A DNA stretch of 64,000 nt from a virus (IMGVR_UViG_3300035501_000527:1583-65582), one strand, 5' to 3'; counted from the stretch's first letter, positions 1,367 through 62,179 are shown. Program-made: numbers and translations. Notes: generated from the letters alone by a model not told the origin.

Positions 1367-1429
1367 TACTTCATGGTTATTTAAAGTAGATAGAAGAACT
1401 TTTCTATTAAGGAAATGGAGGTTGAAATT

Positions 1430-2062
1430 ATGGCTGTTGCAAAGGTCATTTTGAAATGTAAATATTGTGGTGAAGAATTTGCTTATAGAAAAGACTGTAT
1501 GAATAGAAAAATTGCAGATTCAACTGAAGAATGGGCAAAAGCTAATGTTGATGAATGTCCTGAATGTTATAAAAAGGGACTTCTGGAAATAAAAATGAAA
1601 AAGGAAAAGGCAAGTAGTGAGAAGTTTGCTCCTGCGCTTGCAGAATATAACCTCCCTAGTTTAAAAGGCACTGAAAAGCAAGTAGAATGGGCTAATACAA
1701 TTAGAAACAATACTTTAGGAATGATGTTAAAATTAAAGCCAAAGGAAAATTTCTGGGAGTGGGCAAGAACAAAAATTGATGCTAAATGGTGGATTGACAA
1801 TAGAAATGAAATGAATAATGTTTATGATTTTTGTTTGGCAATTAAAATAGACCAAATACCAAAACCAAAAGAACCGGAAATATTAAAAGGATATAAATGG
1901 AATCGAAAAATTTACGGAAAAGAAGATAATTATTCTATTTATCTTGATGGGAATAAGGTTGTAATCACTAATGAACAAGCGAAAGAATTAGAACAATATC
2001 TTTCAGCAAGAACGGAATATAATAGTAAGGTAAACGAAGTAAGAAAAGAGTATAATGTTTAA
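1430..2062 (+). CDS. Hypothetical phage protein with Zn-finger-like CKYC...CPEC
   Basis: ORF track 1415-2062; GGAGG favours ATG 1430. Confidence 0.8.
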   Translation: MAVAKVILKCKYCGEEFAYRKDCMNRKIADSTEEWAKANVDECPECYKKGLLEIKMKKEKASSEKFAPALAEYNLPSLKGTEKQVEWANTIRNNTLGMMLKLKPKENFWEWARTKIDAKWWIDNRNEMNNVYDFCLAIKIDQIPKPKEPEILKGYKWNRKIYGKEDNYSIYLDGNKVVITNEQAKELEQYLSARTEYNSKVNEVRKEYNV

Positions 2063-2079
2063 GAAGGAGGTAAGATGTT

Positions 2080-2799
2080 ATGATATTTGGAACAAATCCT
2101 AAATACGTGGAGATACTTATTTTAGCAAAGAAATTAGATGCTGCTAAAATCCCTTACGAAATGGAATATGGTGGGGAAGGATGGATATTATATTATCCTA
2201 GGCGTGATGATTATTCATCAAGTAAGGAATGTGTATGTATGGTTATGGAATATGATGGTTCTTGGGGAAGCGAAAATGATTTGTTGGAAGTCAGTGGAAT
2301 CCCGACTATGAAAAATGAAAAGGACTACACCGTATTTCCACAGCTCCAAGAAACTGATGAATATGAAGATGATGAATGGGAACTAGGAAATCTCCCAGCA
2401 GAATATGTGTATGACAGAATATCTCAACATTATTATGAGAACAAAGACATTATAGATGAAAAAATAAAAGGCAGATATTCTTTAAGAGAAAGCCATAAAT
2501 TGTCAAGTGGCATGGTTCATAAAGATGACTATTCTAATCTACCAGAAGATTTAAAGGAATTTAATTATTTTTATAATAATGGCAAAGGACATGTCATAAT
2601 GGGAATTGCCAAGTATCATTTAGATAATTGTGAAGAAGAAATGACAGAAGAAGAACTCGATGAATATGAGGAACCAATTCCGGTAAGGTTTGTTTTGGAA
2701 AACGGATATACAATATATAAAAACCATGTTATATGTAATGGATATTATGATGTTTCCAAAGGCTTAGTTATTGAAGATAAGTATTACGAACCATATTAA
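2080..2799 (+). CDS. Hypothetical acidic protein
   Basis: ORF track; AGGAGG RBS. Confidence 0.8.
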   Translation: MIFGTNPKYVEILILAKKLDAAKIPYEMEYGGEGWILYYPRRDDYSSSKECVCMVMEYDGSWGSENDLLEVSGIPTMKNEKDYTVFPQLQETDEYEDDEWELGNLPAEYVYDRISQHYYENKDIIDEKIKGRYSLRESHKLSSGMVHKDDYSNLPEDLKEFNYFYNNGKGHVIMGIAKYHLDNCEEEMTEEELDEYEEPIPVRFVLENGYTIYKNHVICNGYYDVSKGLVIEDKYYEPY

Positions 2800-2895
2800 A
2801 AATACCCGTACTTTAGAATTATATAAAAGATATGATAAATTTCATAATGTAAATATTAAAATGTAACTGAATAAAAGAATTGAAAGGAAGAAAAC

Positions 2896-3369
2896 ATGAA
2901 TTATTTTAATCATTTTACATTAAATACAAGAAATAATCGGAAAAGTTTTGCGTCAGAAGTTGATAAGGATATAGTATTTAGACTAATGCCAGTTGTAAAA
3001 CGTGCGATAGAAACTAGTGGTATATGTGATTTTATTATAAATGAAACGTCTATTAAAATAACTGTTGAGGATAATGATACATATGCTATGACTTTGTTTT
3101 TAGGTAAAGAATCAAATCCAGCACTTATTTCTTTTGGCACTATAAATGGTAAAAAAAGAAAAGAAATAATTGAACTGAGTAAGCCATTTGAAAAAATGAT
3201 AAAGCCTACCACATCTATAAGAACAGTTATTCCAGATGCTCCAGTAATTGTAGATATATTATTACCAGGAATAATGGAAAGGATGGATTTATTAGAATTA
3301 ACGGGAGATTTGTCAAGATGTATAGCTTGGATAGTATTATCTTCTGAGAGCATAATTGTAGAAAAGTAG
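2896..3369 (+). CDS. Hypothetical protein
   Basis: ORF track; GAAAGGA RBS. Confidence 0.75.
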   Translation: MNYFNHFTLNTRNNRKSFASEVDKDIVFRLMPVVKRAIETSGICDFIINETSIKITVEDNDTYAMTLFLGKESNPALISFGTINGKKRKEIIELSKPFEKMIKPTTSIRTVIPDAPVIVDILLPGIMERMDLLELTGDLSRCIAWIVLSSESIIVEK

Positions 3370-3391
3370 TTAAAAATAGGAGTGTGATATT

Positions 3392-3553
3392 ATGCCGTTA
3401 GTAAAAAGTTGTAAGACCTGTAGATGGGTTGGATGCAGAAATTATGGTAGAGAATTAAACGCTTGTGTTAATTATATTATGTCATTGGAAGAAGAAAAGA
3501 AAATTGAGAAGGAAAAACTAGAGTTGAGCAGAAGAAGAACAGAGATAAATTAA
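3392..3553 (+). CDS. Small Cys-rich hypothetical protein (53 aa)
   Basis: Manually translated MPLVKSCKTCRWVGC...; AGGAG RBS. Confidence 0.6.
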   Translation: MPLVKSCKTCRWVGCRNYGRELNACVNYIMSLEEEKKIEKEKLELSRRRTEIN

Positions 3554-3576
3554 TAGTTCTATATGAATCTAGTGAG

Positions 3577-4465: not shown

Positions 4466-4540
4466 AAATATTGATAAAGTAATTAAATTATCACAAGATA
4501 TTTATTGTGAATAGAAGGTGAATTTTAAAAGGAAAAGGAT

Positions 4541-6043: not shown

Positions 6044-6087
6044 TTACTATAAATTTAGATTTCTATAATATTTTAAAGGAGTTCTAA

Positions 6088-8114: not shown

Positions 8115-8139
8115 AGCAGTGTATATACACTGCTTTATT
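8110..8139. terminator. Perfect 30-bp palindrome between convergent genes (bidirectional terminator)
   Basis: AATAAAGCAGTGTATATACACTGCTTTATT covers both stop codons. Confidence 0.7.
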
Positions 8140-8365
8140 TATTAACATCATCAATCTCAATATCAGACAATATTTGGTTATAGATTTTTAGCTTATCAGG
8201 ATGTTTATTAATGGCAACATAGTCCCTTATAATTTGGCAAAGTAGACTGCTAATTGACCGATCTTTTTTTATTGCAATTGCTGCAAATTCCTCTTTGAGT
8301 GACCGAGAAATCTTAAATCCGGTCTGAACTTTATCGGAAATATTATTTTCCTTGTTATTACCCAT
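8135..8365 (-). CDS. Ribbon-helix-helix (Arc/CopG-like) DNA-binding protein
   Basis: QTGFKISRSLKEEFAAIAIKKDRSISSLLCQIIRDYV pattern; GGAGGT RBS; own promoter. Confidence 0.75.
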   Translation of the reverse strand: MGNNKENNISDKVQTGFKISRSLKEEFAAIAIKKDRSISSLLCQIIRDYVAINKHPDKLKIYNQILSDIEIDDVNK

Positions 8366-8394
8366 ATGAATGACCTCCGTTATCTTATTTTTTA

Positions 8395-8423
8395 ATTATA
8401 TATTTATAGAAAAATATAGTCAA
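8395..8423 (-). promoter_or_regulatory. Sigma-A promoter of RHH gene
   Basis: Minus strand TTGACT-N17-TATAAT. Confidence 0.75.
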
Positions 8424-8516
8424 CTTTTTAATAAAAATTATAGTAAAATCATAATAAAGTTATAATAAACTGTTATTATTATGTTATACTTTAATTATAT
8501 AAATAATAAAATAGTA

Positions 8517-8545
8517 TTGACAAAATTATATAAAAAATTTATATT
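8517..8545 (+). promoter_or_regulatory. Sigma-A promoter of pemK-like gene
   Basis: TTGACA-N17-TATATT. Confidence 0.7.
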
Positions 8546-8674
8546 ATATATAAATTCTTATATATTTTTTTGAATAATTTTTTATATATTTTCCCCCATC
8601 AATATATAGAAACTTAATAACTTTTTGCGGAGATTTTTCTGCAATTTTCCATCAACCTGAAAGGAGGTTTGTAT

Positions 8675-9061
8675 ATGGAACTGGAACTTCATCGTTATGA
8701 TGTGATTGAAGCAGAGTTAAATTATGGTAGTGGTTCAGTACAATCTAAACGAAGACCATACATAATAGTTAGCAACGAGAAAGGCACTACTAATGCCAGT
8801 ATAATAACTGTAATGCCCCTAAGTACAGTTATTAAGAAACAAAGTCAACCAACACATAGTTGTCTGGAAGCGGAAACAGAAAATGGATTGAAAAGATATT
8901 CCATGATTCTCGGTGAGCAGCCACAAACAATATGTAAGAAAGAGGTAATTAAGAAACTAGGAACGGTAACTAATAGATTCCAAAAGAATAACATAAATAA
9001 AGTATGTTTTAATTCATTCTTTTTTGGAGAAAATATTAATTGGGAGGAGGTTTTTGCATAA
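8675..9061 (+). CDS. PemK/MazF-family endoribonuclease-like protein
   Basis: RYDVIEAEL..GSVQSKRRPYIIVSN..VMPLST family motif; AAGGAGG RBS favours ATG 8675. Confidence 0.85.
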   Translation: MELELHRYDVIEAELNYGSGSVQSKRRPYIIVSNEKGTTNASIITVMPLSTVIKKQSQPTHSCLEAETENGLKRYSMILGEQPQTICKKEVIKKLGTVTNRFQKNNINKVCFNSFFFGENINWEEVFA

Positions 9062-9365: not shown

Positions 9366-9394
9366 TTGACAAAATCGAACATGTGTTCTATACT
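9366..9394 (+). promoter_or_regulatory. Sigma-A promoter with LexA (SOS/Cheo) box between -35 and -10
   Basis: TTGACA-N17-TATACT; CGAACATGTGTTCT at 9376-9389 fits GAAC-N4-GTTC. Confidence 0.8.
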
Positions 9395-9671: not shown

Positions 9672-9742
9672 TGCGAGTTGGTGTAATGGCAGCACATGAG
9701 AATTTGACTCTCAAAGTACGTGTTCGAACCACGTACTCATAG
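9672..9742 (+). tRNA. tRNA-Gln(UUG), atypical or possibly degenerate, no encoded CCA
   Basis: Cloverleaf: D arm GTGT/GCAC, anticodon arm TGAGA-ATTTGAC-TCTCA, T arm ACGTG-TTCGAAC-CACGT; acceptor has C3:A70 mismatch. Confidence 0.75.
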
Positions 9743-10654: not shown

Positions 10655-11320
10655 ATGAATGTCGAAGATGTATTGAAACAGATAGATGTTGTTATCAATT
10701 CATTATACGAGAATAATGCTAATAAACTAGAAAAGGAATGTCGAAAGGTGATGTCTAAATTTGGTGGCATATATCAAATGGATTATGATAATTTTTATTC
10801 AAAAGTTGGTTTAGAGCTTTCTATAGCAAGAATTAAATATGCTAATGAATTAGTAAAAAATAATAAACCATTCAATGAAAGTGATTTTCGTAGTTATCTT
10901 TCAGGTATTATATATTTTGCAGTTTGTAAAGAAATGACAAAGCGAAATAGAAAAAAAAGAATGATAATTATAGAAGTCAAGGAAATTGATGAAGATGAAA
11001 ATATTGTAATAAGAAAAGAATATATACCTACAATTTCACTTGATACACCTTTGACAGATGACAAGAGCGTTACTATTGCTGATACTGTTTTAGATGATAA
11101 CAATACAATTGAAAAGAAAATATTTGAAGAAGATAGTTATAGTGAAAAAATGCTTAAATATTTAAGTAAATTGTCAATGTTGCAAAAAGAAGTTTTGCAG
11201 TTAACTATAGCTGGCTATTCGTCAAAAGAGATTATTGAAAAGTTACATATTACAAATAAACAATATAGTGATAGTTGTGCTGCTATTCATTCATATAGAA
11301 ATGTGTCTGTATTGTTTTAA
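10655..11320 (+). CDS. Sigma-70-like factor / region-4 HTH regulator
   Basis: ISLD motif and C-terminal LSMLQKEVLQLTIAGYSSKEIIEKLHIT HTH. Confidence 0.7.
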   Translation: MNVEDVLKQIDVVINSLYENNANKLEKECRKVMSKFGGIYQMDYDNFYSKVGLELSIARIKYANELVKNNKPFNESDFRSYLSGIIYFAVCKEMTKRNRKKRMIIIEVKEIDEDENIVIRKEYIPTISLDTPLTDDKSVTIADTVLDDNNTIEKKIFEEDSYSEKMLKYLSKLSMLQKEVLQLTIAGYSSKEIIEKLHITNKQYSDSCAAIHSYRNVSVLF

Positions 11321-11345
11321 TATTAAATTAGGGAGGTACAATGTT

Positions 11346-12752
11346 ATGGCAAGACCAAGAAAACAAACTTATGTAATGTCACAGTATATGGATAATGTAA
11401 AAGAGGGTTACATATCTAATGATGCTGATACGCAGAGAAATCCTGCGTGGAAACCTATTATTAATGGATTAATTGTAACGGTACTTACGGATGATTATAT
11501 TCCTCCGATTATTCTTACGGAAGATAATAATGGTATGTTACATATTGTTGATGGTGGAAGTAGAACGGCTGCATTAAGAAGATTCCGGTATATGAATCAT
11601 AAAATTTCTAGTAAAACTGAAGATACACTTATTCGATACAAGGAAAAGACAGTAGATGAAGATGGTGAAATCGTATGGAAGGATGCTGAGTTTGATATAA
11701 AAAATAAAACTTATGATAAACTTCCAAAGGAATTAAAGAAGAAATTTGACGAATACCAGCTTGAAACAGTAATCCATGAGAATTGTACATTTATAGATAA
11801 CTCTAAATACATCAAAAGATACAATATGCATTCGGGAATGAATGTTGAAGAAAAAGCTTTAACCTATATTCCTAATTTTGCTAAGAAAATCAGGAATATA
11901 GCGGATAGGAAATTCTTTAATGATTATAGCGATTTCACTGATAGTCAAAAAGAAAAAGGAAAATTAGAACGTGTTGTTTTTGAAACAGTTATGTGTATGT
12001 TTCATTTTGATAACTGGAAAACACAAGCAAATATGATGGCAGGTTATCTAAATGATAATTCAAATAAAGAGGAATTTAAGAAATTAGAATCAAATATATG
12101 TAGATTAGAAAATGTAATCGCAAATGATATTAAGAATATTTTTAATATAAAAGATTCTTTTATATTTCTTACTTTATTTGATAGGTTTACTAATTCCTGT
12201 CTTGATGATAATAAGTTTGTTGATTTTCTCAGAGAATTTCAGACTAATTATAGAATAAATAAGAAGAATGAAAAAGGTTTGTTATTTGATGAAATCGACA
12301 AAGAAGGTAGTACAAAGGATAAGGTAGTAGTTACGGCTAAATTAGATATGCTTACTAATCTTATGTACGAATATTTACATATCACTCCTAAAACTAAAGA
12401 GGACATTTACATAGATGATTTTTGCAACACTGACTTAATATTATCATCTGACTTATCCGATGAAGATAAGAAAAATGTTGCAATAGAGTCCTTAAAACTA
12501 ACGAATAATGTTACAGATGATGCACTTTTATATGCTGATTCTGTTAATGAATGGCTATTAAACATAGAAGATAGCGAAAAACTTATTGCTAAGAATGTCA
12601 TTCCAGCGATGATAGGATTAGTTAATTACATATATAACGGCGATTATACAGATGAACAGGGTATAAATACACTAAAAAATTATCTACATACTAAGAGTAT
12701 AACTAATAGCGCAAATATTAATCTTACAAATATGATAGCGTGTGTTGGATAG
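11346..12752 (+). CDS. DUF262 (ParB/Srx-fold, GmrS-like) domain protein
   Basis: TQRNPAW...IPPIIL...IVDGGSRT motif; GGAGG RBS favours ATG 11346. Confidence 0.7.
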   Translation: MARPRKQTYVMSQYMDNVKEGYISNDADTQRNPAWKPIINGLIVTVLTDDYIPPIILTEDNNGMLHIVDGGSRTAALRRFRYMNHKISSKTEDTLIRYKEKTVDEDGEIVWKDAEFDIKNKTYDKLPKELKKKFDEYQLETVIHENCTFIDNSKYIKRYNMHSGMNVEEKALTYIPNFAKKIRNIADRKFFNDYSDFTDSQKEKGKLERVVFETVMCMFHFDNWKTQANMMAGYLNDNSNKEEFKKLESNICRLENVIANDIKNIFNIKDSFIFLTLFDRFTNSCLDDNKFVDFLREFQTNYRINKKNEKGLLFDEIDKEGSTKDKVVVTAKLDMLTNLMYEYLHITPKTKEDIYIDDFCNTDLILSSDLSDEDKKNVAIESLKLTNNVTDDALLYADSVNEWLLNIEDSEKLIAKNVIPAMIGLVNYIYNGDYTDEQGINTLKNYLHTKSITNSANINLTNMIACVG

Positions 12753-13637: not shown

Positions 13638-13967
13638 ATGGATAGTATTGTAAGGCGTGATTTAGACGGTATTTATTTCAGTGTTATAAGAAATGACAGA
13701 TATGAATCTTTATGTTTCTCTGATCTTACAGAAGATGAAATGAATACAGTAATGGAAGGTAGGTCGGAAGTATGGCTTAAATCTATGTGTGTACTGCTTG
13801 GAAAATGTATAAGAGAAATTGGAGATACATTTGATTTGGTTTGTTGTAATAAGGATGAAGATATAGACATATCAGATAGTAGAATTAAAGAATGTGCATT
13901 ATATAAAGAAGCTGATGAATGTGGTAAATATGCTACTTGTAAAATGTGTTCTGCAAATGCTATATAG
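13638..13967 (+). CDS. Hypothetical protein
   Basis: ORF track. Confidence 0.75.
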   Translation: MDSIVRRDLDGIYFSVIRNDRYESLCFSDLTEDEMNTVMEGRSEVWLKSMCVLLGKCIREIGDTFDLVCCNKDEDIDISDSRIKECALYKEADECGKYATCKMCSANAI

Positions 13968-14008
13968 AAGTCGCATTTTCTTGGAAAAATGAAGCGAGGT
14001 GGTGACAT

Positions 14009-15951: not shown

Positions 15952-16458
15952 ATTTCGATATTTTCAGGGAAATGTGATGTATACGACACATTAATACAAA
16001 CATTCCGATATTCATTAGAAGAATTACAGAATGGTGTAAATATATATGTTGGTGACAGTAAAGAGCCACTACATATATCTAAGATGAAGGACTTAATACC
16101 TTATTATCCATATCTGATTACAAGTGCTTACTACGATAATATAAATAGAAAAGCTAATATTCAAATTTCATCTGAATCCTATGTAGATAGAGAAGAAAGA
16201 GAAATATTGCAGAGATACTTGGAAGAAATTATAAAAATATATAAAAAATGTAAACGTAATAAGGTTGATTTCACATTGGATTTAACATTTCAGGAGAGTT
16301 ATTTCAGTTTTAGCAAGTGGAATTATAATGTATGTAAAGAAATCTATAATCGTGTTCAAAAAGATGGTGCCAAAGCTAATATTGAGGGTATTCATCTGAA
16401 GATATTTGATAAATATAGACAGAATTTAGCTGAAGAATTAGGAAATGTGGGTGAATGA
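15952..16458 (+). CDS. Hypothetical protein, probable ATT start
   Basis: GAGGTGA RBS then in-frame ATT TCG ATA TTT TCA GGG AAA TGT; the track extension runs through the structured region. Confidence 0.65.
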   Translation: MSIFSGKCDVYDTLIQTFRYSLEELQNGVNIYVGDSKEPLHISKMKDLIPYYPYLITSAYYDNINRKANIQISSESYVDREEREILQRYLEEIIKIYKKCKRNKVDFTLDLTFQESYFSFSKWNYNVCKEIYNRVQKDGAKANIEGIHLKIFDKYRQNLAEELGNVGE

Positions 16459-16467: not shown

Positions 16468-16635
16468 ATGAGACAGAAAAAATTTCTTAAAAAATTTATT
16501 GAGGACAATGCTGTGATGATAGATTCATTAATATCAAACGATGAAAGAAAGAAACTACATAATGGTGATACACCAAGTAGTATTTTACTGGAAGAAATTA
16601 ATAAAGAATTGGAGGGCGAAAATGGATACAAGTGA
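16468..16635 (+). CDS. Small hypothetical protein (55 aa)
   Basis: Manually translated; GAGGT RBS. Confidence 0.6.
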   Translation: MRQKKFLKKFIEDNAVMIDSLISNDERKKLHNGDTPSSILLEEINKELEGENGYK

Positions 16636-17440
16636 TTTAGCGAAAAGAATGAAAGGGTACGAAAAAGTAGGAGAGAGATATTTAACTAGAAGACTCCCAG
16701 TTGTGTTGAGACTTGATGGCTGTCATTTCCATAGCTTTACTAAGAATTTTAAAAGACCATTTGATGAAATTTTAATTAAAACTATGCAAAATACAATGAA
16801 ATATTTGTGTGAAAACATTCAAGGAGCAGTAATTGGATATACACAATCAGATGAAATTACTATCTTGTTAGTTGATTATCAAAATCTTAATACGTCTGCA
16901 TGGTTTGATAATAGACAAAACAAAATTGAAAGTGTAGCAGCCAGTATGTGTACTATGGCTTTCAACAGATATTTTGAATTAGCTTCTTTAACAAAAAGGA
17001 TAAAATCTGGCATAGAAGAAGATTATCAATTAGGTGATACTTATAAAAAAGCATTGGTTAAAGGCGCATATTTTGATTGTAGGGCTTTCACTATACCTAA
17101 AGAAGAAGTAACGAATAACTTCTATTGGAGACAACTTGATTGTATAAGAAACAGTATCCAGATGGTAGGACAGGCTAATTTCAGCCACAAGGAATTACAA
17201 AATAAATCCTGTAATGATATTCAAGATATGCTTATGACTCAAAAAGGTATTAATTGGAATGACTTGCCTACATATCAAAAGAGAGGAAGTTGTTGTATTA
17301 AAGAGTATTATCAAGCAGAAAACGTAGACATTAAAGATGGGACTTGTGAAAGAAGTCGTTGGATTATTGATAAAAATATTCCTATATTCAGAGGAGAGGG
17401 CAGAGAATATATAGAAAGATTAGTTATGGTTGGAGAATAG
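16622..17440 (+). CDS. tRNA(His) guanylyltransferase Thg1-like 3'-5' polymerase
   Basis: RMKGYE..VVLRLDGCHFH..YTQSDEI..FDCR motifs; GGAGG RBS before ATG 16622. Confidence 0.9.
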   Translation: MDTSDLAKRMKGYEKVGERYLTRRLPVVLRLDGCHFHSFTKNFKRPFDEILIKTMQNTMKYLCENIQGAVIGYTQSDEITILLVDYQNLNTSAWFDNRQNKIESVAASMCTMAFNRYFELASLTKRIKSGIEEDYQLGDTYKKALVKGAYFDCRAFTIPKEEVTNNFYWRQLDCIRNSIQMVGQANFSHKELQNKSCNDIQDMLMTQKGINWNDLPTYQKRGSCCIKEYYQAENVDIKDGTCERSRWIIDKNIPIFRGEGREYIERLVMVGE

Positions 17441-17449
17441 GAGATTTTT

Positions 17450-17848
17450 ATGAAGAAAGAAAATATAAATATTTCATGTGATATCTGTAAATATAGCAAA
17501 CCACATGATTATATTAACAATCATTATTATTGTGAAAATAGATGTTTCTCAGGGGATAAACCTATGGTACATAATTGCTCAGAGGGTGAATTAGATGAAT
17601 GGGTATATAATCTCAAATACAAACCATTAAAATCTGATGAAAACGTATCAAAAGAACTTATGTATGAAGAATTAAAACAAATACTTTGGGGGATTAAATT
17701 AAAAGATATTGACACTATTATGAAAGAAATAAACGCATTAAAGGAAAAAATTACATCTTACAGGGAATCATATAAATGCGAAACCTGTGCGGTAGAAACT
17801 TGTGATTTATATGCTGCTGGATGTAGAAACTGTAGTGGGTGGAAATAG
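17450..17848 (+). CDS. Cys-rich hypothetical protein
   Basis: ORF track. Confidence 0.75.
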   Translation: MKKENINISCDICKYSKPHDYINNHYYCENRCFSGDKPMVHNCSEGELDEWVYNLKYKPLKSDENVSKELMYEELKQILWGIKLKDIDTIMKEINALKEKITSYRESYKCETCAVETCDLYAAGCRNCSGWK

Positions 17849-17883
17849 AAAATTAATTTTAAATGGATAGGAGGAGAAAATTA

Positions 17884-44896: not shown

Positions 44897-44948
44897 TAAA
44901 ATAAATTCTCATTCTATTTGGTAAAAAAAATAGGAAGGAGGGTGAAAT

Positions 44949-45614
44949 GTGCCTTATGTTTATAGATACACAGATTTAAATGATGAAATTATAAAATATG
45001 TTGGTAATGTATGGTCAAATAATCGAACATTACAGAAACGAATAAGAGAACATAAAAATGATGATTGGTACAAAGATAAAAATTGGAAAATAGAATATAT
45101 TCAAGTAAACACAAGAACGGATGCAGAATATCTTGAATCTCATTTTATCGAAAAGTATAAAACATATAACTATTATAATCAGGCTAAAGCACATTGGGGC
45201 ATATCTGATTTTATCAAAGATGATTTCGAATGGAAATTGTACACAGAGGATTTGTCTGAGTTTGAATGTTTAAAAAATTACAATAAAAAGTTATGTAACG
45301 AAAATAACAAACTGTCTTTAGATATAAAAAAGTTGGAATATGAATTAAAGGATGCAAAAAATCAAATAAATTATTTAGAGCAAAATAAGAATACTGATAT
45401 TACACAAGATGAAATAGATGATGCTAATAATGAATTATCTTTATTAAAAATTGAAAAGGATTCACATAAAGTTGGTAGACCATCATCAATAACACCGCAT
45501 GATATAGATTTAATGTTTACTTTAAGAAAAGATGGAGCTTCAATGAGAGAAATTGCAAAAATATTAAAAATTTCCGTTGGCTCGGTACATAGATTCCTTA
45601 ATAATTTAGCATAA
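44949..45614 (+). CDS. GIY-YIG nuclease-like protein with coiled coil and C-terminal HTH
   Basis: YVYRY..KYVG..RIREH..AEYLESHFI; GRPS...SMREIAKILKISVGSVHRFL. Confidence 0.75.
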   Translation: MPYVYRYTDLNDEIIKYVGNVWSNNRTLQKRIREHKNDDWYKDKNWKIEYIQVNTRTDAEYLESHFIEKYKTYNYYNQAKAHWGISDFIKDDFEWKLYTEDLSEFECLKNYNKKLCNENNKLSLDIKKLEYELKDAKNQINYLEQNKNTDITQDEIDDANNELSLLKIEKDSHKVGRPSSITPHDIDLMFTLRKDGASMREIAKILKISVGSVHRFLNNLA

Positions 45615-45711
45615 TTCTGATAGAGATATTTCTAAATGTAGCAATTATTTGAGCTATATTCTGTTCAGGTGGAAAACAGCCCGCCTTTTCCCATTCTCAG
45701 AAATTCACACC

Positions 45712-45789
45712 ACTATATATAGTGGCTTATATAGATAATACATACAATATATTGATTAAAAATGGGGATAGAATAGCTGTTTTATCGGG
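45712..45789 (+). repeat. Composite site D
   Basis: ACTATATATAGT-N20-ACAATATATTGA-N12-ATAGAA-N6-TTTTAT. Confidence 0.8.
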
Positions 45790-53005: not shown

Positions 53006-56000
53006 GTGAGTTTTTTTGGAGTACATAACCATAGTGCCGAAGGAAGTAATTTACGTTTAAGAGATTCCATAAATAAAATACCAGAAATGATTGAATATGC
53101 TCACTCATTAGGTCATTCTGGTATTTGTTTTACAGAACATGAATCAATTACTTCATCATTAGATGCATTAAAATACTATGACAGTAAAAAAGATTCGGAA
53201 GATTGGAAAGATTTTAAAGTAGTTCTTGGCAATGAAATTTATCTTTGTACGGAAGAAGTAACAGCAGAGAATAAATTTAATAATCGTTATCCTCATTTTA
53301 TTTTAGTAGCTCTTAATGCTAATGGTCATAAAGGTATTAGAGAATTAAGTACAAAAGCATGGATTCAAAACTCTTTTATGCACGTTATGATGAGAGTTCC
53401 TACTTATTATAGTGATCTTGAAGAAATGATGATTAGTTACAAGGGGGATATTGTTGGTTCATCAGCCTGTATAGGTGGTGCTCTCCCCCATAGATTATTG
53501 CAGTTTCAAGATTTAGAGCAGAGTAATCCTAAAGAATACGAGAAAATTTGGCAGTCTTGTAAAGATTGGATTGCTTATATGAATGAGATTTTTGGAAAAG
53601 GATATTTCTTTTTAGAGTTGCAACCTTCCCATATGGGAGAACAAATTTATGTAAATCATAAATTAATACAGCTTTCACAAGAGACGGATACACCATATAT
53701 TATCACTACAGATTCACACTATCTAAAGAAAGAAGATAGAGAAATACATAAAATATTTTTGGAATCACAAGATGGTGACAGAGAAGTTGATGATTTTTAT
53801 TCAACCACTTATATCATGAGTGAAACAGAAATTCATGAATACATGGATGAATATTATGGTTATGATGTTGTGCAAAAAGGGTTGGATAATACAATGCTTA
53901 TTTATGAAAAAGCAGAGTATTACAAGCTGACTAAGGATTTGGATATTCCATATATTCCCCTTAATACAAATGAACCGAATAAGCAGCTTTATGAAAAGTA
54001 TAAAGATAAAATTTTACTACTGAAGGATTTTTATGAATCAGAATATGACAGTGACAGGCATTTAGTGAGAGATATTGTCGCTTATATTGATACTGATGAA
54101 TATTATCGTACAGAAGAAGCTTATGAAAAAATCAATGAATGTTTACATTATATAAAAGATTCATCTGAAAAAATGAAAGTTCGTTGGTCTAAATATCTTT
54201 TGCAGATTGCAATAGATGTACAGATTGCATGGAATGCTGGAACATTAGTGGGCGCAGGTCGTGGTTCAGGTGTAGGATTTTGTTTGTTGAACATCCTTGG
54301 TATCACACAAATCAATCCTTTAAGAGAAAAAACAAAGACATATCCATGGAGATTTTTGAATCCAGAACGAGCCTCTGTGTTAGATATTGATATTGATATA
54401 TGTGGTTCAAAGCGTGAAACAGTTATTCAAGCAATGAAAGACACATATGGAGAAGATAGAGTTAGTAAAGTAATGACATTATCTACGGAAAAAAGTAGAA
54501 GTGCTATTTTAACGGCAGCTCGTGGTTTGAAAATTGACAATGATATTGCACAGTATATCAGTTCATTGATTGTGGCTGATAGAGGGCAGTTAAGAACTTT
54601 GTCACAAATGTATTATGGAGATGATGACAATCCACCAGTTAAAGAGTTTGTAACAGAAATGGATAAATATCCTCAACTATGGGAAGCTGCACAAAAAATA
54701 GAAGGCTTAGTAAATGGTGTTGGTTCACATGCTGGTGGAATTATTTTAGTAGATAAACCTTTTACTGATACAACGGCTTTAATGAAAACAAATTCTGGTG
54801 ATATTATTACCCAGTTTGACCTTCATATGTGTGAAGATTGTTCGCTTATTAAAGTAGATCTTCTTTGTATAGATGCATTAGATAAGATGCAAGCGGAATT
54901 AGATTTGTTGTTAGAGAACGGATTAATTGAATGGCAAGGCTCTTTAAAAGACACTTATGAAAAATACATTGGTGTCTATACGCTTGAAAGAGAAGCAAAA
55001 GATATGTGGGAAATGCTGTGGAATCACAAAGTAATGTCTTTCTTCCAGATGGAAAAAGAAAGTGGCGTACAAGCAGTAGCCTTGGCTAAACCGGCTTCTG
55101 TTGATGAATTGGCAACAATTAACTCTGTATTGCGATTAATGGCACAGGAAAAAGGAGCAGAAACGCCATTACAAAAGTATGCAAGATTCAGAGAAAATAT
55201 TCAGTATTGGTATGATGAGATGACTGAATATGGATTAACACAAGAAGAACAGGATATTTTAAAAGACATTATAGGTGTTTCTTATGGGATATGTGAAGCA
55301 CAGGAGTATTTGGTACTACTCACACAACATCCTAAGATTGGTGGTTTTTCGTTAGCTTGGGGCGACAGACTGCGTAAAGCAGTAGCGAAGAAAAAACCAA
55401 AAGAGTTTTTGCAATTACAAGAAGAATTTTTTGCTAATGCAAAAGAGAAGAATCTATCAAAGAATTTAACAAATTATGTTTGGAATGTACTTATTTGTAC
55501 GCAGCGTGGATATGGTTTCAACAAATCTCACACTTTAGCGTACTCCATTATTGGCTTACAAGAATTGAATTTATGCTACAAATACAACCCTATTTACTGG
55601 CAAACTGCAAACTTGATTGTTGATTCCGGTGCAATAGATGAAAATGCTGGTGATTCAACTAATTACGGCAAAATGGCAATAGCAATAGCTTCCGTACAAA
55701 AAGAGAATGTAAAGGTGGAATTACCACTTATCAATACAGCCGAATTTGGATTCAAAGCCGATGTCAACAATAATCGTATTATTTTTGGATTAAAAGGTAT
55801 CAATGGTATTGGAGACGATATCGTGCAAGCCATTGTTCAAAATCGACCATTTACTTCAATAGAAGATTTCGCAGAAAAAATGTTAGATACAAAAATAATC
55901 ACTAATGCAAAAATGGTTCAACTTATAAAAGCTGGTTGTTTTACTGAATTACATTCATCAGATCGAACAGAGACAATGAATTGGTTTTTAAATAAATATG

Positions 56001-56944
56001 CTTTTTCTCCAAGTGAAAAAATAACCATGCAGCAATTTAATAAAATGAAAGAATTGGGGATTGTTCCTGATTCGTTGGATTTAGCTGTAAGAATGGTTAA
56101 TTTTAAAAAGTATATTTTAGATGAAGAAGGTCTGTATGAAAAACATATTGAAGAAGGAAAGAAAATACCAAAGAGAGGCTATCATGATGGATATTACATA
56201 TTAGACAACAATTCGCAACCATTCTTCAAAGAACATTTTTCAGAAGATTCTGTTGTAGATATTAAAGGTGATTACTATATTGTGTCAGAAAAAATATTTA
56301 CAAAAGAAGCAGATTCTAAAATACAACCATTAAAGGATTGGTTTGACAATGAAGAAACTTTAAAGAAATATAACGAAGCATTATATCAAACAGTATGGAA
56401 AAAATATGCAAGTGGCACATTACCTTCCTGGTCTATGCAAGCATTAAGCTATTACAATGGTGAACACGAATTAGCACATATTAATGAAGAATTATATGGT
56501 ATAGTCAATTTCTTTAAATTACCAGAAGAACCAGAGCCTTACGATTATTATACAAGATATATTGATGGTGTTCCTAGACAGATACCCAAATTTAAAATTT
56601 CTCGTATTGCTGGAACGGTAATCAATGCTGATAACTTACATTGTATGGTAACACTTTTAACGGTATATGGTGCTGTTCAAGTGAAATTCAATAAAGGACA
56701 TTATGCTTTTTATAATAAACAAATTTCAGCAAAACTTGATCCAAACAGCGATAAGAAAACAGTTCTTGAAAAAAGCTGGTTAAGTCGTGGCTCTAAAATA
56801 GTTGTTGCCGGTATAAGAAGAGAAGATGGTTTTAGACCAATGATATATAAAGATACAATTTATCAGCATACGGTTAATAGAATTCAAGAAATATATAAAG
56901 ACGGAACATTATTATTACAATCAGAAAGAACAAAAGTAGAATAG
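53006..56944 (+). CDS. dnaE: DNA polymerase III alpha subunit (DnaE-type)
   Basis: PHP domain (HNHS, TEHE, TDSH), GRGSG, DIDID, HAGG, FNKSH. Confidence 0.95.
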   Translation: MSFFGVHNHSAEGSNLRLRDSINKIPEMIEYAHSLGHSGICFTEHESITSSLDALKYYDSKKDSEDWKDFKVVLGNEIYLCTEEVTAENKFNNRYPHFILVALNANGHKGIRELSTKAWIQNSFMHVMMRVPTYYSDLEEMMISYKGDIVGSSACIGGALPHRLLQFQDLEQSNPKEYEKIWQSCKDWIAYMNEIFGKGYFFLELQPSHMGEQIYVNHKLIQLSQETDTPYIITTDSHYLKKEDREIHKIFLESQDGDREVDDFYSTTYIMSETEIHEYMDEYYGYDVVQKGLDNTMLIYEKAEYYKLTKDLDIPYIPLNTNEPNKQLYEKYKDKILLLKDFYESEYDSDRHLVRDIVAYIDTDEYYRTEEAYEKINECLHYIKDSSEKMKVRWSKYLLQIAIDVQIAWNAGTLVGAGRGSGVGFCLLNILGITQINPLREKTKTYPWRFLNPERASVLDIDIDICGSKRETVIQAMKDTYGEDRVSKVMTLSTEKSRSAILTAARGLKIDNDIAQYISSLIVADRGQLRTLSQMYYGDDDNPPVKEFVTEMDKYPQLWEAAQKIEGLVNGVGSHAGGIILVDKPFTDTTALMKTNSGDIITQFDLHMCEDCSLIKVDLLCIDALDKMQAELDLLLENGLIEWQGSLKDTYEKYIGVYTLEREAKDMWEMLWNHKVMSFFQMEKESGVQAVALAKPASVDELATINSVLRLMAQEKGAETPLQKYARFRENIQYWYDEMTEYGLTQEEQDILKDIIGVSYGICEAQEYLVLLTQHPKIGGFSLAWGDRLRKAVAKKKPKEFLQLQEEFFANAKEKNLSKNLTNYVWNVLICTQRGYGFNKSHTLAYSIIGLQELNLCYKYNPIYWQTANLIVDSGAIDENAGDSTNYGKMAIAIASVQKENVKVELPLINTAEFGFKADVNNNRIIFGLKGINGIGDDIVQAIVQNRPFTSIEDFAEKMLDTKIITNAKMVQLIKAGCFTELHSSDRTETMNWFLNKYAFSPSEKITMQQFNKMKELGIVPDSLDLAVRMVNFKKYILDEEGLYEKHIEEGKKIPKRGYHDGYYILDNNSQPFFKEHFSEDSVVDIKGDYYIVSEKIFTKEADSKIQPLKDWFDNEETLKKYNEALYQTVWKKYASGTLPSWSMQALSYYNGEHELAHINEELYGIVNFFKLPEEPEPYDYYTRYIDGVPRQIPKFKISRIAGTVINADNLHCMVTLLTVYGAVQVKFNKGHYAFYNKQISAKLDPNSDKKTVLEKSWLSRGSKIVVAGIRREDGFRPMIYKDTIYQHTVNRIQEIYKDGTLLLQSERTKVE

Positions 56945-60291: not shown

Positions 60292-60657
60292 ATGAACATT
60301 TTAGAGGATATAAAAGATATTGTAAAAGATGACAAAGAACATCTGATTGCAGTCAAGGCATCTTGGGATGGAATTTATGTATATTTAGAATATGACCCTG
60401 ATAAAGAGTTTGAGGAAAATTGTATTATTCCAATTTTTTATGATGTGTTAGATGAATTCCCTTATATACCAGATGATGAACTAAAAGAAAAATGGAATCC
60501 TAGTGATTATGGGATTGATTATAATGAGATTTGTTTGATTAAAAACATCATGGAATATTTTAATGAACACAAAGAAGAAATTAAAGAATTATGTAGTGGT
60601 TTTGATTTTGAAACAAAGAAGAAAGAGGTAGAAACCGATGAAAGTAAATCTGATTAG
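60292..60657 (+). CDS. Hypothetical protein
   Basis: ORF track. Confidence 0.75.
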   Translation: MNILEDIKDIVKDDKEHLIAVKASWDGIYVYLEYDPDKEFEENCIIPIFYDVLDEFPYIPDDELKEKWNPSDYGIDYNEICLIKNIMEYFNEHKEEIKELCSGFDFETKKKEVETDESKSD

Positions 60658-60892
60658 TAATGAAATAGATGAAACAAAATTAAATAAAGAAATTAATTAT
60701 TATGTCTGTACAACAAATCAAGAGCCATATCTATTCATGAACAAAGATACTGCAAATGCTATAGGAAAACAACATAATTTATCACCATTAGAGACAGTGA
60801 AGAATAATAGTAACATTATAATTGGAAGATATATGGGTAATAGAGTTTATATTAATGACGATTTAACATTTGGAGAAGTCGAGATTAGGTAA
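60638..60892 (+). CDS. Hypothetical protein (paralog of 42421-42666)
   Basis: Shared motifs. Confidence 0.75.
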   Translation: MKVNLISNEIDETKLNKEINYYVCTTNQEPYLFMNKDTANAIGKQHNLSPLETVKNNSNIIIGRYMGNRVYINDDLTFGEVEIR

Positions 60893-60905
60893 AAGAGGAA
60901 ATATA

Positions 60906-61142
60906 ATGATTAGTGCAGAAGAAGCAAGAAAAGAGACAAGTAAAAATTTAGAAACATTTTCTACTACCCAATTACAGGATATTGAGAAAAAGATAAAAGA
61001 AGCGATTGAACAAGGAAGTTATTCAATATCATGTGATGGTTATTTGGCAGCTCAATCAATGAATGTTCTTGAAAAGGCAGGTTTTAAAATAGATATTGGA
61101 AGGCAATATAATGAATTATATTATTCAATAAGTTGGGAATAG
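60906..61142 (+). CDS. Hypothetical protein
   Basis: GAGGA RBS favours ATG 60906. Confidence 0.7.
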   Translation: MISAEEARKETSKNLETFSTTQLQDIEKKIKEAIEQGSYSISCDGYLAAQSMNVLEKAGFKIDIGRQYNELYYSISWE

Positions 61143-61190
61143 AATTTTGATTTTATTTGGTTATAAATAGAATTATTTAAGGAGGTAACT

Positions 61191-61727
61191 TTGGAAACGA
61201 TTGTAATCAATTTATTTGGAGAACCATCTGCCGGCAAAAGTACAGCAGCTATGGATATTACGGCAAGGCTAAAAAGAAAAGGTATCAATGCAGAGTATGT
61301 ATCTGAATTTGCAAAAGATAAAGTTTATGAAAACAATGGTGAAGTATTCAAACATCAGGAATATATGTTTGGAAAACAGTCGTTTAAAATGGGAAGAGTA
61401 AAAGATAAAGTGGAAGTTATGGTTGTTGATTCGCCACTCATTCTATCTATTGTTTATAATAATGATGAGATTTTAGATGATAATTTTAATAGAGCCGTTC
61501 TAAATATGTTTAATTCGTACATAAACAAAAATTATCTCTTGACAAGAAATCATACATACGAAAACGAAGGAAGATTCCAAAATGAGAACGAAGCATTACT
61601 TGTTAGGACTCAGATTATGAATATGTTGGAAGTATATGATATAGATTATAATATTGCGACATCAAGTGAAAAAGATTGTGAAAGGATTGTAAATGATATT
61701 GTGAAGGAGATTAGAGAAAATGAATAG
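61191..61727 (+). CDS. P-loop nucleotide kinase-like ATPase (AAA_28/NadR-like)
   Basis: NLFGEPSAGKST, SEFAKD, VDSP, EGRFQ. Confidence 0.8.
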   Translation: METIVINLFGEPSAGKSTAAMDITARLKRKGINAEYVSEFAKDKVYENNGEVFKHQEYMFGKQSFKMGRVKDKVEVMVVDSPLILSIVYNNDEILDDNFNRAVLNMFNSYINKNYLLTRNHTYENEGRFQNENEALLVRTQIMNMLEVYDIDYNIATSSEKDCERIVNDIVKEIRENE

Positions 61728-61881
61728 TAAAGGTCATTTGTTTATCAGCTTATCAAAATCAGCTATTAGAGTAATCGGTGGAATTATAACACTTATGAAT
61801 GGTTCAATTATTCCATTGACAGTAGGAATTATTGTTGCTGAAATTGGTGGCGTATTGGAAGAATTGGTTGATAAGAGATGA
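61720..61881 (+). CDS. Small membrane protein (53 aa)
   Basis: Manually translated; hydrophobic; overlaps both neighbours. Confidence 0.6.
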   Translation: MNSKGHLFISLSKSAIRVIGGIITLMNGSIIPLTVGIIVAEIGGVLEELVDKR

Positions 61882-62132
61882 AAAAGGTAATAAAAAATCG
61901 TATCATATGTTTCTTTATGATTTGTAGTTTTATATTCCTATTAGCAGGATGTGATAGTGAAAATAATATTGAAGATATCGAAATAAGTCAACCGCATAAT
62001 ACTTATAGTGATGATGCAATATTAATTAAGTCACACAATAATTTCCAATGCATAGACACTAATATTGAATATGATGAAGAATTGGGCGTTTATACATGTA
62101 CTGTTAAATTTAAGAAGATTATAGACAAATAA
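61878..62132 (+). CDS. Putative lipoprotein
   Basis: Signal peptide with LAGC lipobox. Confidence 0.65.
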   Translation: MKKVIKNRIICFFMICSFIFLLAGCDSENNIEDIEISQPHNTYSDDAILIKSHNNFQCIDTNIEYDEELGVYTCTVKFKKIIDK

Positions 62133-62179
62133 AAATTCCGTTTCATTTAGATTCAAAAGATTAGGGAGGTTACTTAATT

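Follow-up and report, generated by a model that had tools for sequence, protein, structure and literature searches.

Spacer-bearing dyads at early-gene junctions of an SPbeta-like gut phage as candidate recombination joints

Analysis of a 64,000-nucleotide stretch of viral DNA (the window) revealed a family of short dyads, each with two inverted arms around a 6-bp spacer, at the junctions of the early genes, and the evidence favours joints for recombination, built into the genome, over ordinary gene signals. In our estimate the prospects are even that a site-specific recombinase, most likely a member of the tyrosine family, uses the dyads as core sites and that the spacer determines which partner a site takes. 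The window derives from a distant SPbeta-like gut phage, large and of the prophage type, with a DnaE that is 40% identical to YorL.

The dyad family in the window

The exact pattern ATARAA-N6-TTYTAT was matched 9 times in the window against 0.44 expected, and none of 100 shuffles reached 9; the shuffle comparison proposed in the preliminary description, made from the window alone, thus favours the motif. A de novo EM search of the plus-strand intergenic gaps returned nATAGAA-N6-TTTTAT-TnGGA in ~25 of 63 gaps (17 bits). More than 20 imperfect inverted-repeat copies with a 6-bp spacer, often trailed by T(T)GG, had been claimed; 23 core dyads were accepted here, and the EM search recovered both motif and tail. 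All 23 lie at junctions of plus-strand early genes, 21 of them before 45.9 kb and 2 beyond the replication module (45.9-59.3 kb), which contains none, as already described. The motif matches in a sister contig of the window's lineage are concentrated in its last 10 kb, the early region. The sites and associated features are, in window coordinates:

1390-1407, plus: dyad ATAGAA-gaactt-TTCTAT, at the junction ahead of the gene at 1430-2062
3545-3562, plus: dyad ATAAAT-taatag-TTCTAT, upstream stop within the spacer
4511-4528, plus: dyad ATAGAA-ggtgaa-TTTTAA
5037-5054, plus: dyad ATTGAA-tctaag-TTCTAT
6049-6066, plus: dyad ATAAAT-ttagat-TTCTAT
13964-13981, plus: dyad ATAGAA-gtcgca-TTTTCT, stop codon in left arm
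17845-17862, plus: dyad ATAGAA-aattaa-TTTTAA, stop codon in left arm
21451-21468, plus: dyad ATAAAT-tctcgg-TTCTAT, stop codon in left arm
21914-21931, plus: dyad ATAAAT-tccacg-TTTTAA, RBS directly 3'
22591-22608, plus: dyad ATAGAA-acgata-TTTTAT, RBS directly 3'
25169-25186, plus: dyad TTAGAA-ccatcg-TTTCAT
26091-26108, plus: dyad ATTGAA-gtattt-TTTTAT
27109-27126, plus: dyad ATAGAA-gcaaca-TTTTAT, stop codon in left arm
28851-29019, plus: candidate second switch, AAAAAA-TATTAC-TTTTAT and ATAAAA-GTAATA-ATTTAA, bracketing the leader and first codons of a C5 methyltransferase gene, ON as sequenced
31237-31254, plus: dyad ATAAAA-cttcaa-TTCTAT, 13 nt past paired palindromic boxes at 31180 and 31212
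36495-36512, plus: dyad ATAAAA-tttttg-TTTTAT, 13 nt past paired palindromic boxes at 36439 and 36470
36530-36547, plus: left inversion site TTAAAA-ATTTAA-TTCTAT, inverted repeat at 36533-36549
36536-36817, minus: invertible segment, OFF as sequenced, its minus strand bearing the leader plus 59 initial codons of a PAPS-reductase-like gene
36806-36823, plus: right inversion site ATAGAA-TTAAAT-ATTGAT, spacer the reverse complement of the left-site spacer; the ON state encodes I-E-L-N-I-D
36824-37942, plus: body of the PAPS-reductase-like gene, its own 5' end missing as sequenced
38006-38023, plus: dyad ATAAAA-cctttc-TTCTAT, 13 nt past the box region at 37950
40324-40341, plus: dyad ATAGAA-tctgcg-TTTTAT
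41112-41129, plus: dyad ACAAAT-ccaaac-TTCTAT
42130-42147, plus: dyad ATAAAT-ctcggc-TTCTAT
44900-44917, plus: dyad AATAAA-ttctca-TTCTAT
45768-45785, plus: dyad ATAGAA-tagctg-TTTTAT, past a palindromic box at 45711, heading the replication module
61139-61156, plus: dyad ATAGAA-ttttga-TTTTAT, stop codon in left arm
62129-62146, plus: dyad ATAAAA-attccg-TTTCAT, stop codon in left arm

The arms are 6 bp long and extendable to ~10 bp, giving an 18-bp core and up to 26 bp with flanks. Each dyad lies on the transcribed strand with the stop codon 5' and the RBS 3', and the right arm is followed by an asymmetric T(T)GG-A-rich tail. The dyads had been described as similarly oriented, which holds for the shared tail; the 18-bp core reads the same on both strands, and orientation rests on the tail only. 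An upstream stop codon was found in the left arm at all six sites for which one had been reported (13964, 17845, 21451, 27109, 61139 and 62129), because TAR belongs to the arm sequence. An RBS downstream, also reported earlier, was found together with a start codon 27-52 nt past the dyad start. Promoter context is missing at 19 of the 23 dyads, which lie between stop codon and RBS, and four are preceded, always by 13 nt, by palindromic boxes that are conserved and promoter-like. A match at 9374 was rejected from the family, being a LexA-type box within a TTGACA-17-TATACT promoter, and a match at 27312 falls at the 5' end of a HEARO/omega RNA.

The spacers are mutually distinct within the window, in agreement with the preliminary description, and enriched in C (24% versus 11% in the window); relatively C/G-rich spacers are unlike many known overlap regions and count against a core-site reading. 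So does the left arm, which is far weaker in conservation than the right. As a correction to the preliminary description, R and Y of ATARAA/TTYTAT do not covary, and A·C arm combinations occur at 31237 and 38006. The same 6-6-6 design is found with other arms (ARGAAA/TTTCWT, ATGAAA/TTTCAT and, in G008, ATCAAA/TTTTAT) in the sister lineages G003, G005 and G008, the arms being constant within a genome and different between phage lineages.

An invertible segment in a PAPS-reductase-like gene

The 282-bp segment 36536-36817 lies between a dyad and a dyad-like copy in inverse orientation, their spacers being identical, and computed flipping of this segment restores a 433-aa open frame, collinear with homologues in three related contigs (L272, L237 and L279). 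Across the five contigs compared, the window and L257 carry the inverted orientation and L279, L237 and L272 the collinear one; as in an inverton, inverted repeats bound a segment that is present in both orientations across contigs. The repeats are 11-14 bp long (14 bp in both the window and L257) and consist of the arm and spacer of the respective lineage, ATTTAA+TTCTAT in the window and CCAATC+TTTCA in L257 and L279, with the internal copy at homologous codons in both. A dyad is paired with an inverted copy in 12 cases, versus 2-3 in controls. The inversion with identical-spacer ends, already noticed in the window, is genuine, recurs in relatives and has dyad-type repeats. On the sequences compared, the only proven rearrangement is one that joins identical-spacer sites.

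Gene exchange, candidate enzymes and alternative readings

Exchange was analysed in ~40 close relatives of one sister lineage rather than in the window's own lineage. In these genomes homology blocks start or end on dyads, with mosaic joints at nucleotide resolution. Certain 6-nt spacers, few in number, come back repeatedly as tags of particular slots, with many different genes on each side: tcactg, ctgaca, cgacag and ccatta each have at least 10 different upstream and downstream flanks, with genome order conserved. The fraction of linkage breaks is 0.95 at dyad junctions in two independent sets and 0.60-0.88 at other junctions, and exchange is also seen between leader and start codon. The alignment of relatives proposed earlier thus places joints on dyads as anticipated; it also shows exchange to be nearly as frequent at non-dyad junctions. 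Some genes adjoin two different spacers, and spacer identity is therefore no absolute rule.

The dyads, with a 6-bp centre between inverted arms, correspond to the geometry of a tyrosine-recombinase core site, in which inverted enzyme-binding arms enclose an overlap of 6-8 bp that recombining sites have in common, and the anatomy proposed in the preliminary description, inverted 6-bp arms with a 6-bp spacer, is borne out as a prediction from sequence. In such a scheme the arms would be protein-binding half-sites and the spacer the crossover region. A site whose spacer is unique within the genome would normally have no cis partner and be inert. A same-spacer site in a related phage or prophage would be its partner, allowing the gene or genes of one slot to be swapped with gene order and each RBS kept, whereas with a matched inverted cis copy the 5' part of a gene would be flipped, the PAPS-reductase-like gene (OFF in the window) being the example. 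We infer that an enzyme rather than homology is the agent of exchange, that cutting takes place at the spacer, and likewise which protein might act.

The proposed search for a tyrosine recombinase elsewhere in the genome found a gene just upstream of the window (G000:2-904), matching PF00589 together with its G003 orthologue at 43-54 bits against a 27-bit cut-off. Both proteins keep the predicted catalytic residues R, HxxR, H and Y: aligned with PDB 3nkh, GRRIGD, HSLRK, NH(T/A)D and the tyrosine of (N/K)YIG fall on active-site positions, while the catalytic Lys could not be placed. The atypical but catalytically intact product of the gene next to the window is one candidate enzyme; another recombinase of the phage or of a Lachnospiraceae-type host is equally possible. 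The flanks of the gene showed neither a dyad nor any special site. Tyrosine recombinases were the only type found: the resolvase-family catalytic domain PF00239 had no match in five genomes (control positive in 13 of 14 genomes), and a Hin/Gin-type serine invertase system was rejected on this ground. The HTH_7 protein at 44949-45614 resembles a free-standing relative of GIY-YIG-type endonucleases.

No recombinase gene tracks arm type among the compared genomes, which, like the frequent exchange at non-dyad junctions, stands against the core-site reading. G001 and G004 have the arms and spacers of G003 without its early-region recombinase, carrying an unrelated XerD-like one, and the other integrase-family genes of G001 and G003 are at most 26% identical.

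A possible but rather doubtful alternative makes the dyads operators of a dimeric early-gene regulator, the counterpart of SPBRE/MrpR. The ~26-bp recurrent sequence with its RBS leader would double as a homology linker for relaxed exchange by the phage's Sak4-like ATPase and PD-(D/E)XK exonuclease, and the inversion would be a homology flip between 14-bp repeats, kept by selection. Both genes are found in the phage, linkers of this kind have a precedent in PeSL (PMC2839356), and exchange is seen where dyads are missing as well as between leader and start codon. The regulator side draws on the relationship to SPbeta, in whose early region a repeated dyad is bound by a recombinase-fold repressor, on the independent variation of the half-sites, as a protein dimer would predict, and on the four dyads behind promoter-like boxes; yet an operator has no obvious target between stop and RBS at the 19 dyads without a nearby promoter, an MrpR homologue is absent, and no regulator gene tracks arm type. 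As for the inversion, homology would have to work on repeats of just 11-14 bp, which is very little, yet the five contigs show both orientations, and the internal repeat changes along with the arm and spacer of the lineage.

Improbable in our view is a family of promoters or signals for a phage-directed RNA polymerase, for example one using the sigma-like factor encoded at 10655-11320, with mosaic joints arising merely from position at gene starts. This hypervariable gene and a 505-aa partner are present in every dyad-bearing complete genome tested and were not found in G007, where the junction motif is different and not a dyad, and a TGG-A-rich tail lies behind the right arm; however, the 6-bp arm spacing misfits the -35/-10 geometry of sigma-70 type, the RBS often abuts the right arm and leaves no space for a -10 element and start site, genomes that share identical arms have sigma-like proteins of just 27-45% identity, and the inversion is left unexplained.

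A small mRNA stem-loop upstream of each RBS, serving as processing site, stabiliser or translational element, would suit the constant strand and asymmetric tail of the dyads between stop and RBS and their nominally complementary arms, but the hairpin suggested in the preliminary description is largely refuted and very improbable because the arms do not covary (66.5% paired cells versus 68.1% in column shuffles, 436 of 500 shuffles being at least as high): a full 6-bp stem is possible at only 7 of 24 sites, the variant arms of G003 combine into mismatches (AGTAAA occurs with TTTCTT, AAGAAA with TTTACT), the G008 consensus is itself mismatched (ATCAAA with TTTTAT), and no Rfam family matches the dyads.

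Comparison with known systems

Heterospecific spacers in tyrosine-recombinase core sites are familiar from the lox and FRT variants used for cassette exchange, and the XerCD site dif has an 11-6-11 geometry. Like these, the dyads have two inverted arms around a 6-bp centre, spacer identity would set the pairing, and inverted sites would give inversion. In contrast, a genome here has ~25 natural sites at gene junctions, each bearing a different spacer; the arms are short, the left one weak, and they are unlike the conserved XerD arm of dif. Tentatively, the system may be a natural counterpart of recombinase-mediated cassette exchange, in which the accessory genome of a widespread SPbeta-like gut phage family is laid out in addressed slots by ~25-40 heterospecific sites with shared arms and a 6-bp address each, a recombinase swapping single genes between co-infecting phages or prophages and the same sites being re-used as ON/OFF switches. 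If so, single genes could be swapped without scrambling of gene order, and matched inverted copies would be switches for phage DNA-modification genes.

The SPbeta element SPBRE is bound by MrpR (YopR), a protein of tyrosine-recombinase fold (PMC10516654), and, read directly from the SPbeta sites, is ATACA-N7-TGTAT between the -35 and -10 of ~10 promoters, which it represses. Like the dyads it is repeated in the early region of a related phage group, whereas the dyads differ in sequence and spacing, number at least 23 and lie mostly away from promoters. The MrpR families PF22822 and PF22823 had no match in G000, G006, G003, G001 and G005 (control positive in B. subtilis), nor did a tblastn search with YopR. 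An SPBRE/MrpR operator proper was rejected on sequence, spacing, the 19 of 23 sites lacking promoter context and the missing MrpR-family protein.

The PeSL of T4-type phages combine a strong sigma-70 promoter with a terminator stem-loop and recombine by homology (PMC2839356, PMC4122927). They too are short conserved intergenic elements in hyperplastic regions of small non-essential genes, where recombination explains gene replacement between close relatives. The dyads were rejected as PeSL, having neither -35/-10 geometry nor a G+C-rich stem with T run, and no stem selection; unlike PeSL, they have slot-specific spacers and a linked inversion switch.

Integron attC cassette arrays have been reported also in phages (PMC9892861), and the preliminary description had proposed an integron-like, phage-borne cassette exchange. 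This analogy is only partly supported. Promoterless small genes split by recombination-type sites, often with the stop in the site, and a tyrosine recombinase gene alongside are common to both, and core-site anatomy, joints on dyads and the inversion agree with the proposal; exchange at non-dyad junctions does not. The sites are not attC: they are 18-26 bp with ATARAA/TTYTAT arms and no GTTRRRY, against 57-141 bp with R''/L''/L'/R' boxes. Nor is the adjacent recombinase an integron integrase (24.9 bits against a cut-off of 265 for TIGR02249, 22 against 435 for NF011946). The array seems to lack an attI, and the unlike spacers of neighbouring sites, between which excision would therefore be blocked, argue against single-cassette excision.

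The inversion itself resembles the invertons of gut bacteria, including intragenic ones (PMC10028968), and shufflons, in which inversion between two short repeats carries along part of a coding sequence and both orientations occur in metagenomes. Here, in contrast, the switch is carried by a phage, and one of its repeats is a member of a genome-wide junction family that is otherwise without a cis partner.

Phage context and dyad sites in the window

The window, 64 kb of sequence with 30% G+C and with almost all genes on the plus strand, makes up most of a 65.6-kb viral contig and contains the early/accessory array and the replication module of a phage. In addition to the polymerase listed below, the module encodes a RecD-like helicase, a DnaB-like helicase, a primase, a PD-(D/E)XK exonuclease and a Sak4-like AAA_24 ATPase.

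53006-56944: DnaE-type polymerase, replication module

The top matches of the polymerase among 50,697 phage records are YorL of Bacillus phage SPbeta and its kin (40% identity). IMG/VR holds 54 relatives (polymerase ~91% identical, contigs of 150-180 kb), many further relatives occur in human-gut metagenomes, and one was found within a Lachnospiraceae genome. Based on the YorL-like polymerase, the gut-metagenome relatives and the Lachnospiraceae occurrence, the phage is a distant SPbeta-like gut phage and is probably temperate. For the window's own lineage, no close relative was found in viral, metagenome and genome collections, the exception being a contig with the upstream half of the genome. 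G006 (112 kb), the second contig of this lineage, ends within the gene that opens the window's contig. Both assemblies are interrupted in this tyrosine-recombinase gene, at the start of the window's contig (L182:1-330) and at the end of G006 (L184:10001-10327), and the two overlap inside it over 109 codons with 96% identity.

The preliminary description reported more than 20 ATARAA-N6-TTYTAT sites, all at gene junctions and absent from the replication module, and this picture was borne out. Exact matches to the motif number 9, against 0.44 expected. A de novo expectation-maximisation motif search of the plus-strand intergenic gaps returned two main signals, the ribosome-binding site (RBS) and nATAGAA-N6-TTTTAT-TnGGA, the latter in ~25 of 63 gaps (17 bits). 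After inspection, 23 core sites were kept, each with a stop codon before it and the next RBS after it; 21 lie upstream of 45.9 kb, 0 inside the module and 2 beyond it. Every spacer is different, as described, with a C content of 24% compared to 11% for the window, and at 6 sites the upstream stop codon falls within the left arm, because TAR belongs to the arm sequence. The claim that all sites share one orientation stands for the conserved T(T)GG tail, which sets a direction, but not for the core, which is its own reverse complement; opposite the tail, at the mirror position, there is a weaker CC. Two sites were excluded from the family: 9374, a CGAAC-N4-GTTC box within a TTGACA-17-TATACT promoter, and 27312, where a HEARO/omega RNA has its 5' end.

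Other features of the accessory array are as follows.

9366-9394: CGAACATGTGTTC box, a LexA-type operator inside an early promoter (TTGACA before it, TATACT after it)
9672-9742: tRNA-Gln(ttg) gene, shortly downstream of the LexA-type box
16541-19949: Thg1-like gene near a T4 Rnl1-like RNA ligase gene
23823, 28980 and 39241: three DNA methyltransferase genes
27325-28844: HEARO/omega RNA (Rfam RF02033, 89.6 bits), then a 427-aa RRXRR and HNH protein
31180-31225, 36439-36483, 37950-37963 and 45711-45724: palindromic (T/C)ACTATATATAGTG boxes, mostly paired, ~31 nt apart, with a dyad 13 nt downstream of each location
41142-41648 and 44949-45614: paralogues with a dyad before each; the C-terminus of one is a resolvase-type HTH_7, and the other shows a faint hint of GIY-YIG

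The HEARO RNA and the RRXRR/HNH protein form an IscB-type RNA-guided nuclease unit, the paralogues look like free-standing homing-endonuclease relatives, and the Thg1-like and Rnl1-like genes suggest an RNA repair set. An identical (T/C)ACTATATATAGTG box also precedes some dyads of relatives of the G003 type, despite their different arms. Since the box sequence is the same while the dyad arms differ, it may be read by the host polymerase or by a factor that is conserved.

Lineage-specific arms and mosaic joints in relatives

The window's motif is absent from close relatives, and a scan for window-type motifs across IMG/VR gave single chance matches only. Applied to the early regions of the relatives, the same motif search recovers 6-6-6 dyads with other arms. 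In G006, window-type dyads are confined to the final 10 kb, which is the early region.

Junction motifs in genomes of other lineages (genome; motif; gaps)
G003; cAC-A[GA][GT]AAA-N6-TTTC[TA]T-[GT]TG; 25-30/73
G005; ATGAAA-N6-TTTCAT; ~36/74
G008; ATCAAA-N6-TTTTAT; ~36/73
G007; non-dyad junction motif of another kind

As judged from these motifs, the dyad design is a family trait, and its arms are specific to the lineage. G007 (L189-L191, positions 1-60000), a more distant relative with the common replication module, lacks the dyad and has, in 14-15 of 42 gaps, a repeated element, TAAACTAAATAAAATTAAACAAA.

To compare junctions, ~40 relatives of the G003 type were used, in which the DNA of the replication module is 96-98% identical and the flanking small genes form a patchwork. 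The expectation that breakpoints in relatives fall on the sites was correct in that homology blocks start and end on dyads, but exchange also occurs at other junctions. At the dyad L017:16276-16293, homology ends at 16291-16294 in 23 loci. In dyad-anchored pairs with a common upstream side, divergence sets in where the right arm ends (+15 to +19); in those with a common downstream side, matching starts mostly at -3 to +3. Several spacers (tcactg, ctgaca, cgacag, ccatta, gacgga, tttcga) recur across the population in conserved genome order, and each of them, together with the right arm, adjoins at least 10 different upstream gene ends and at least 10 different downstream genes in many combinations. 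The left-arm variant mostly moves together with the upstream gene, and two different spacers adjoin some of the same genes.

Linkage loss was expressed as a break fraction: whenever another phage contains one flank of a junction, is the other flank changed or not?

Break fraction by junction class (junction; first set; 63 metagenome loci)
Dyad; 95%; 95%
ACAGAGAATA-type second motif; 81%; 88%
Other; 60%; 76%

The rough noise level of the method is 28%, at 'other' junctions in the conserved core (91/99 core junctions). With the highest break fraction among the junction classes, dyads are the most shuffled joints, at nucleotide precision, and exchange is not limited to them. The second junction motif, (A)ACAGAGAATAT(A), lies between stop codon and RBS in the G003-type relatives (L003-L054, L210-L289, e.g. 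L003:370-400) and is a frequent mosaic joint too (0.81-0.88). The window contains no exact match to it and, at up to 2 mismatches, a modest excess (71 vs 50 by chance).

An invertible segment and a candidate second one

The preliminary description had noticed an inversion at 36536-36817, with sites of this type and identical spacers at its two ends. It is genuine: a 17-nt inverted repeat (36533-36549 / 36804-36820) agrees at 16/17 positions, and the ends are dyad-type sites of the local lineage type with matching spacers. Flipping the segment in silico yields a single 433-aa frame, with ...SISDGIELN fused to IDVPEKGYDN..., and homologues from three metagenome loci (L272, L237, L279) are collinear across all 433 residues at ~65% identity. 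L257, a further locus, has this N-terminal part inverted, as in the window. L257 and L279, read by eye, are closely similar over the inversion stretch, so that both orientations occur within one lineage.

Sites at the ends of the inversion (lineage; upstream; internal)
Window; TTAAAA-ATTTAA-TTCTAT; ATAGAA-TTAAAT-ATTGAT
L257/L279; AAGAAT or AGTAAA-CCAATC-TTTCA[AT], with the usual TGGAAAAT tail; [AT]TGAAA-GATTGG-ATTGCA

The internal copy lies at homologous codons in both lineages, 11 residues ahead of a conserved YDNI. It has changed jointly with the arm of its lineage and the spacer of its partner, as a maintained, programmed switch would predict. Repeats of 11-14 bp are too short for efficient homologous inversion.

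Pairs of a dyad and an inverted copy number 12 distinct cases, compared to 2-3 in reversed or complemented controls. One candidate second invertible segment (28851-28868 / 29002-29019, spacers TATTAC and GTAATA) spans the leader and first codons of a C5 DNA methyltransferase gene. The sequenced state is ON, and a flip would delete the start. Its 12-bp inverted repeat, TATTACTTTTAT/ATAAAAGTAATA, is AT-rich and may therefore be due to chance.

Readings of the dyad and comparison with known systems

Recombination by a site-specific recombinase acting at the dyads is a plausible mechanism, to which we give an even chance. The foremost argument for it is the recurrent, covarying inversion between 11-14 bp repeats, followed by the site geometry, by arms that are lineage-specific yet uniform inside a genome, and by spacers that are unique in cis but common to genomes at the same slot. 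The idea of cassette boundaries is supported in part; the integron label was rejected, and the enzyme was not found among the candidates.

It is possible, though we think it doubtful, that the dyad is the operator of a regulator doubling as a homology linker. SPbeta and the promoter-early stem-loop (PeSL) of T4-type phages offer precedents, four dyads lie 13 nt after conserved palindromic boxes, exchange at non-dyad junctions is frequent, and the phage has a Sak4-type recombination module; an inversion that is recurrent and covaries, with repeats this short, argues against it. A signal for a phage polymerase is very unlikely. A reading as a sigma-70 promoter, in which the arm would serve as -35 ahead of a TGG-extended -10, was rejected since the RBS is too near and the transcript start would fall within it. 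An RNA element is less likely still, and the RNA processing hairpin proposed as an alternative, or a DNA hairpin, was ruled out by the lack of arm covariation: a full 6-bp stem is possible at only 7/24 sites, and paired cells in the 23-site alignment amount to 66.5%, compared to 68.1% after shuffling the 3' letters (436/500 shuffles equal or better). The R and Y positions mix freely, with an A.C combination at 31237 and 38006, and G003 arm variants combine uncompensated (AGTAAA with TTTCTT, AAGAAA with TTTACT). With pairing no better than in shuffles and R/Y combining freely, the arms behave like two independent half-sites for a DNA-binding protein.

Candidate readers of the arms and genes near them are as follows.

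2-904 of the window's contig (G000): tyrosine recombinase at the contig start, just outside the window on its upstream side, 5'-truncated
8135-9061: minus-strand 76-aa RHH-type gene, divergent from a MazF/PemK-like gene (59 bits)
10655-12752: 221-aa sigma-like protein with motifs resembling regions 2 and 4 (weak GerE match) and a 505-aa partner

Each genome has 3-4 integrase-family genes. The tyrosine recombinase, which the preliminary description proposed to look for elsewhere in the genome, is 331 aa long once completed from G006 (G003 orthologue 335 aa, 52% identity). It retains R, HxxR, H and Y; its N-terminal core-binding region is almost absent, its catalytic domain contains an insertion, and ~65 residues extend the C-terminus. 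It scores far under the thresholds for Xer and integron-integrase families and has no sequence relationship to MrpR, the SPbeta repressor. As a universal reader it was ruled out, being missing in G001 and G004, which have arms and spacers in common with G003 yet carry an unrelated XerD-like recombinase at the same position. Low identity among same-arm genomes likewise ruled out the integrase-family gene of the late region (26%) and the sigma-like factor (27-45%), and no member of the integrase family is conserved from G001 to G003. The sigma-like/505-aa pair is present in all dyad-bearing complete relatives, at 27-45% identity even between otherwise near-identical phages. Switch regulators were rejected for lack of conservation, being of RHH type in the window and of Cro-like HTH type in G003 and G001; in G003 and G001, unrelated Cro-like HTH genes occupy the position of the RHH-type gene, and the variable tyrosine-recombinase gene lies directly upstream of that position, compared to ~8 kb upstream in the window's lineage. 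A serine invertase was ruled out, as the genomes searched contain no serine recombinase. Genes common to four lineages are only the replication module, a MazF-like gene, the sigma-like factor and a 518-aa protein. Host dif/Xer was rejected because the dyad arms are presumably unlike the conserved XerD arm and because the dyad is not enriched in one host genome (1 match in 3.5 Mb). Since no recombinase or regulator gene tracks the arms across same-arm genomes, the reader is one of three: an unrecognised protein, a host protein, or an enzyme that the phage population, recombining freely, supplies in trans.

Single-gene mosaicism of phages is a long-standing question, usually answered by rare illegitimate recombination with selection or by relaxed homologous recombination. 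A defined lineage-specific site at the joints, a slot-specific tag and, in at least one place, a recurrent inversion make it testable: which protein is it that reads the arms, and does the 6-bp spacer choose the partner? If driven by an enzyme, the dyads would be a new route by which gut viruses exchange accessory genes, many likely for defence or counter-defence, the first clear phage-borne intragenic inversion switch, and a natural orthogonal set of recombination sites. If they are regulatory linkers only, temperate Firmicutes phages would join the T4-type phages under the PeSL idea.

Integrons have been reported in phages (PMC9892861); the label does not fit here, as the dyads are not attC-type, IntI is absent and no attI was seen. 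The inversion qualifies as an inverton and belongs with the intragenic ones reported from gut bacteria (PMC10028968), but it lies in a phage. The dyad system is not the same as SPBRE/MrpR, the operator and repressor of SPbeta, and homology to it was ruled out; unlike PeSLs, dyads have no promoter and terminator. We know of no natural counterpart, also from literature searches, to the heterospecific recombinase sites of engineered cassette exchange, and it is such a set that the dyads work most like.
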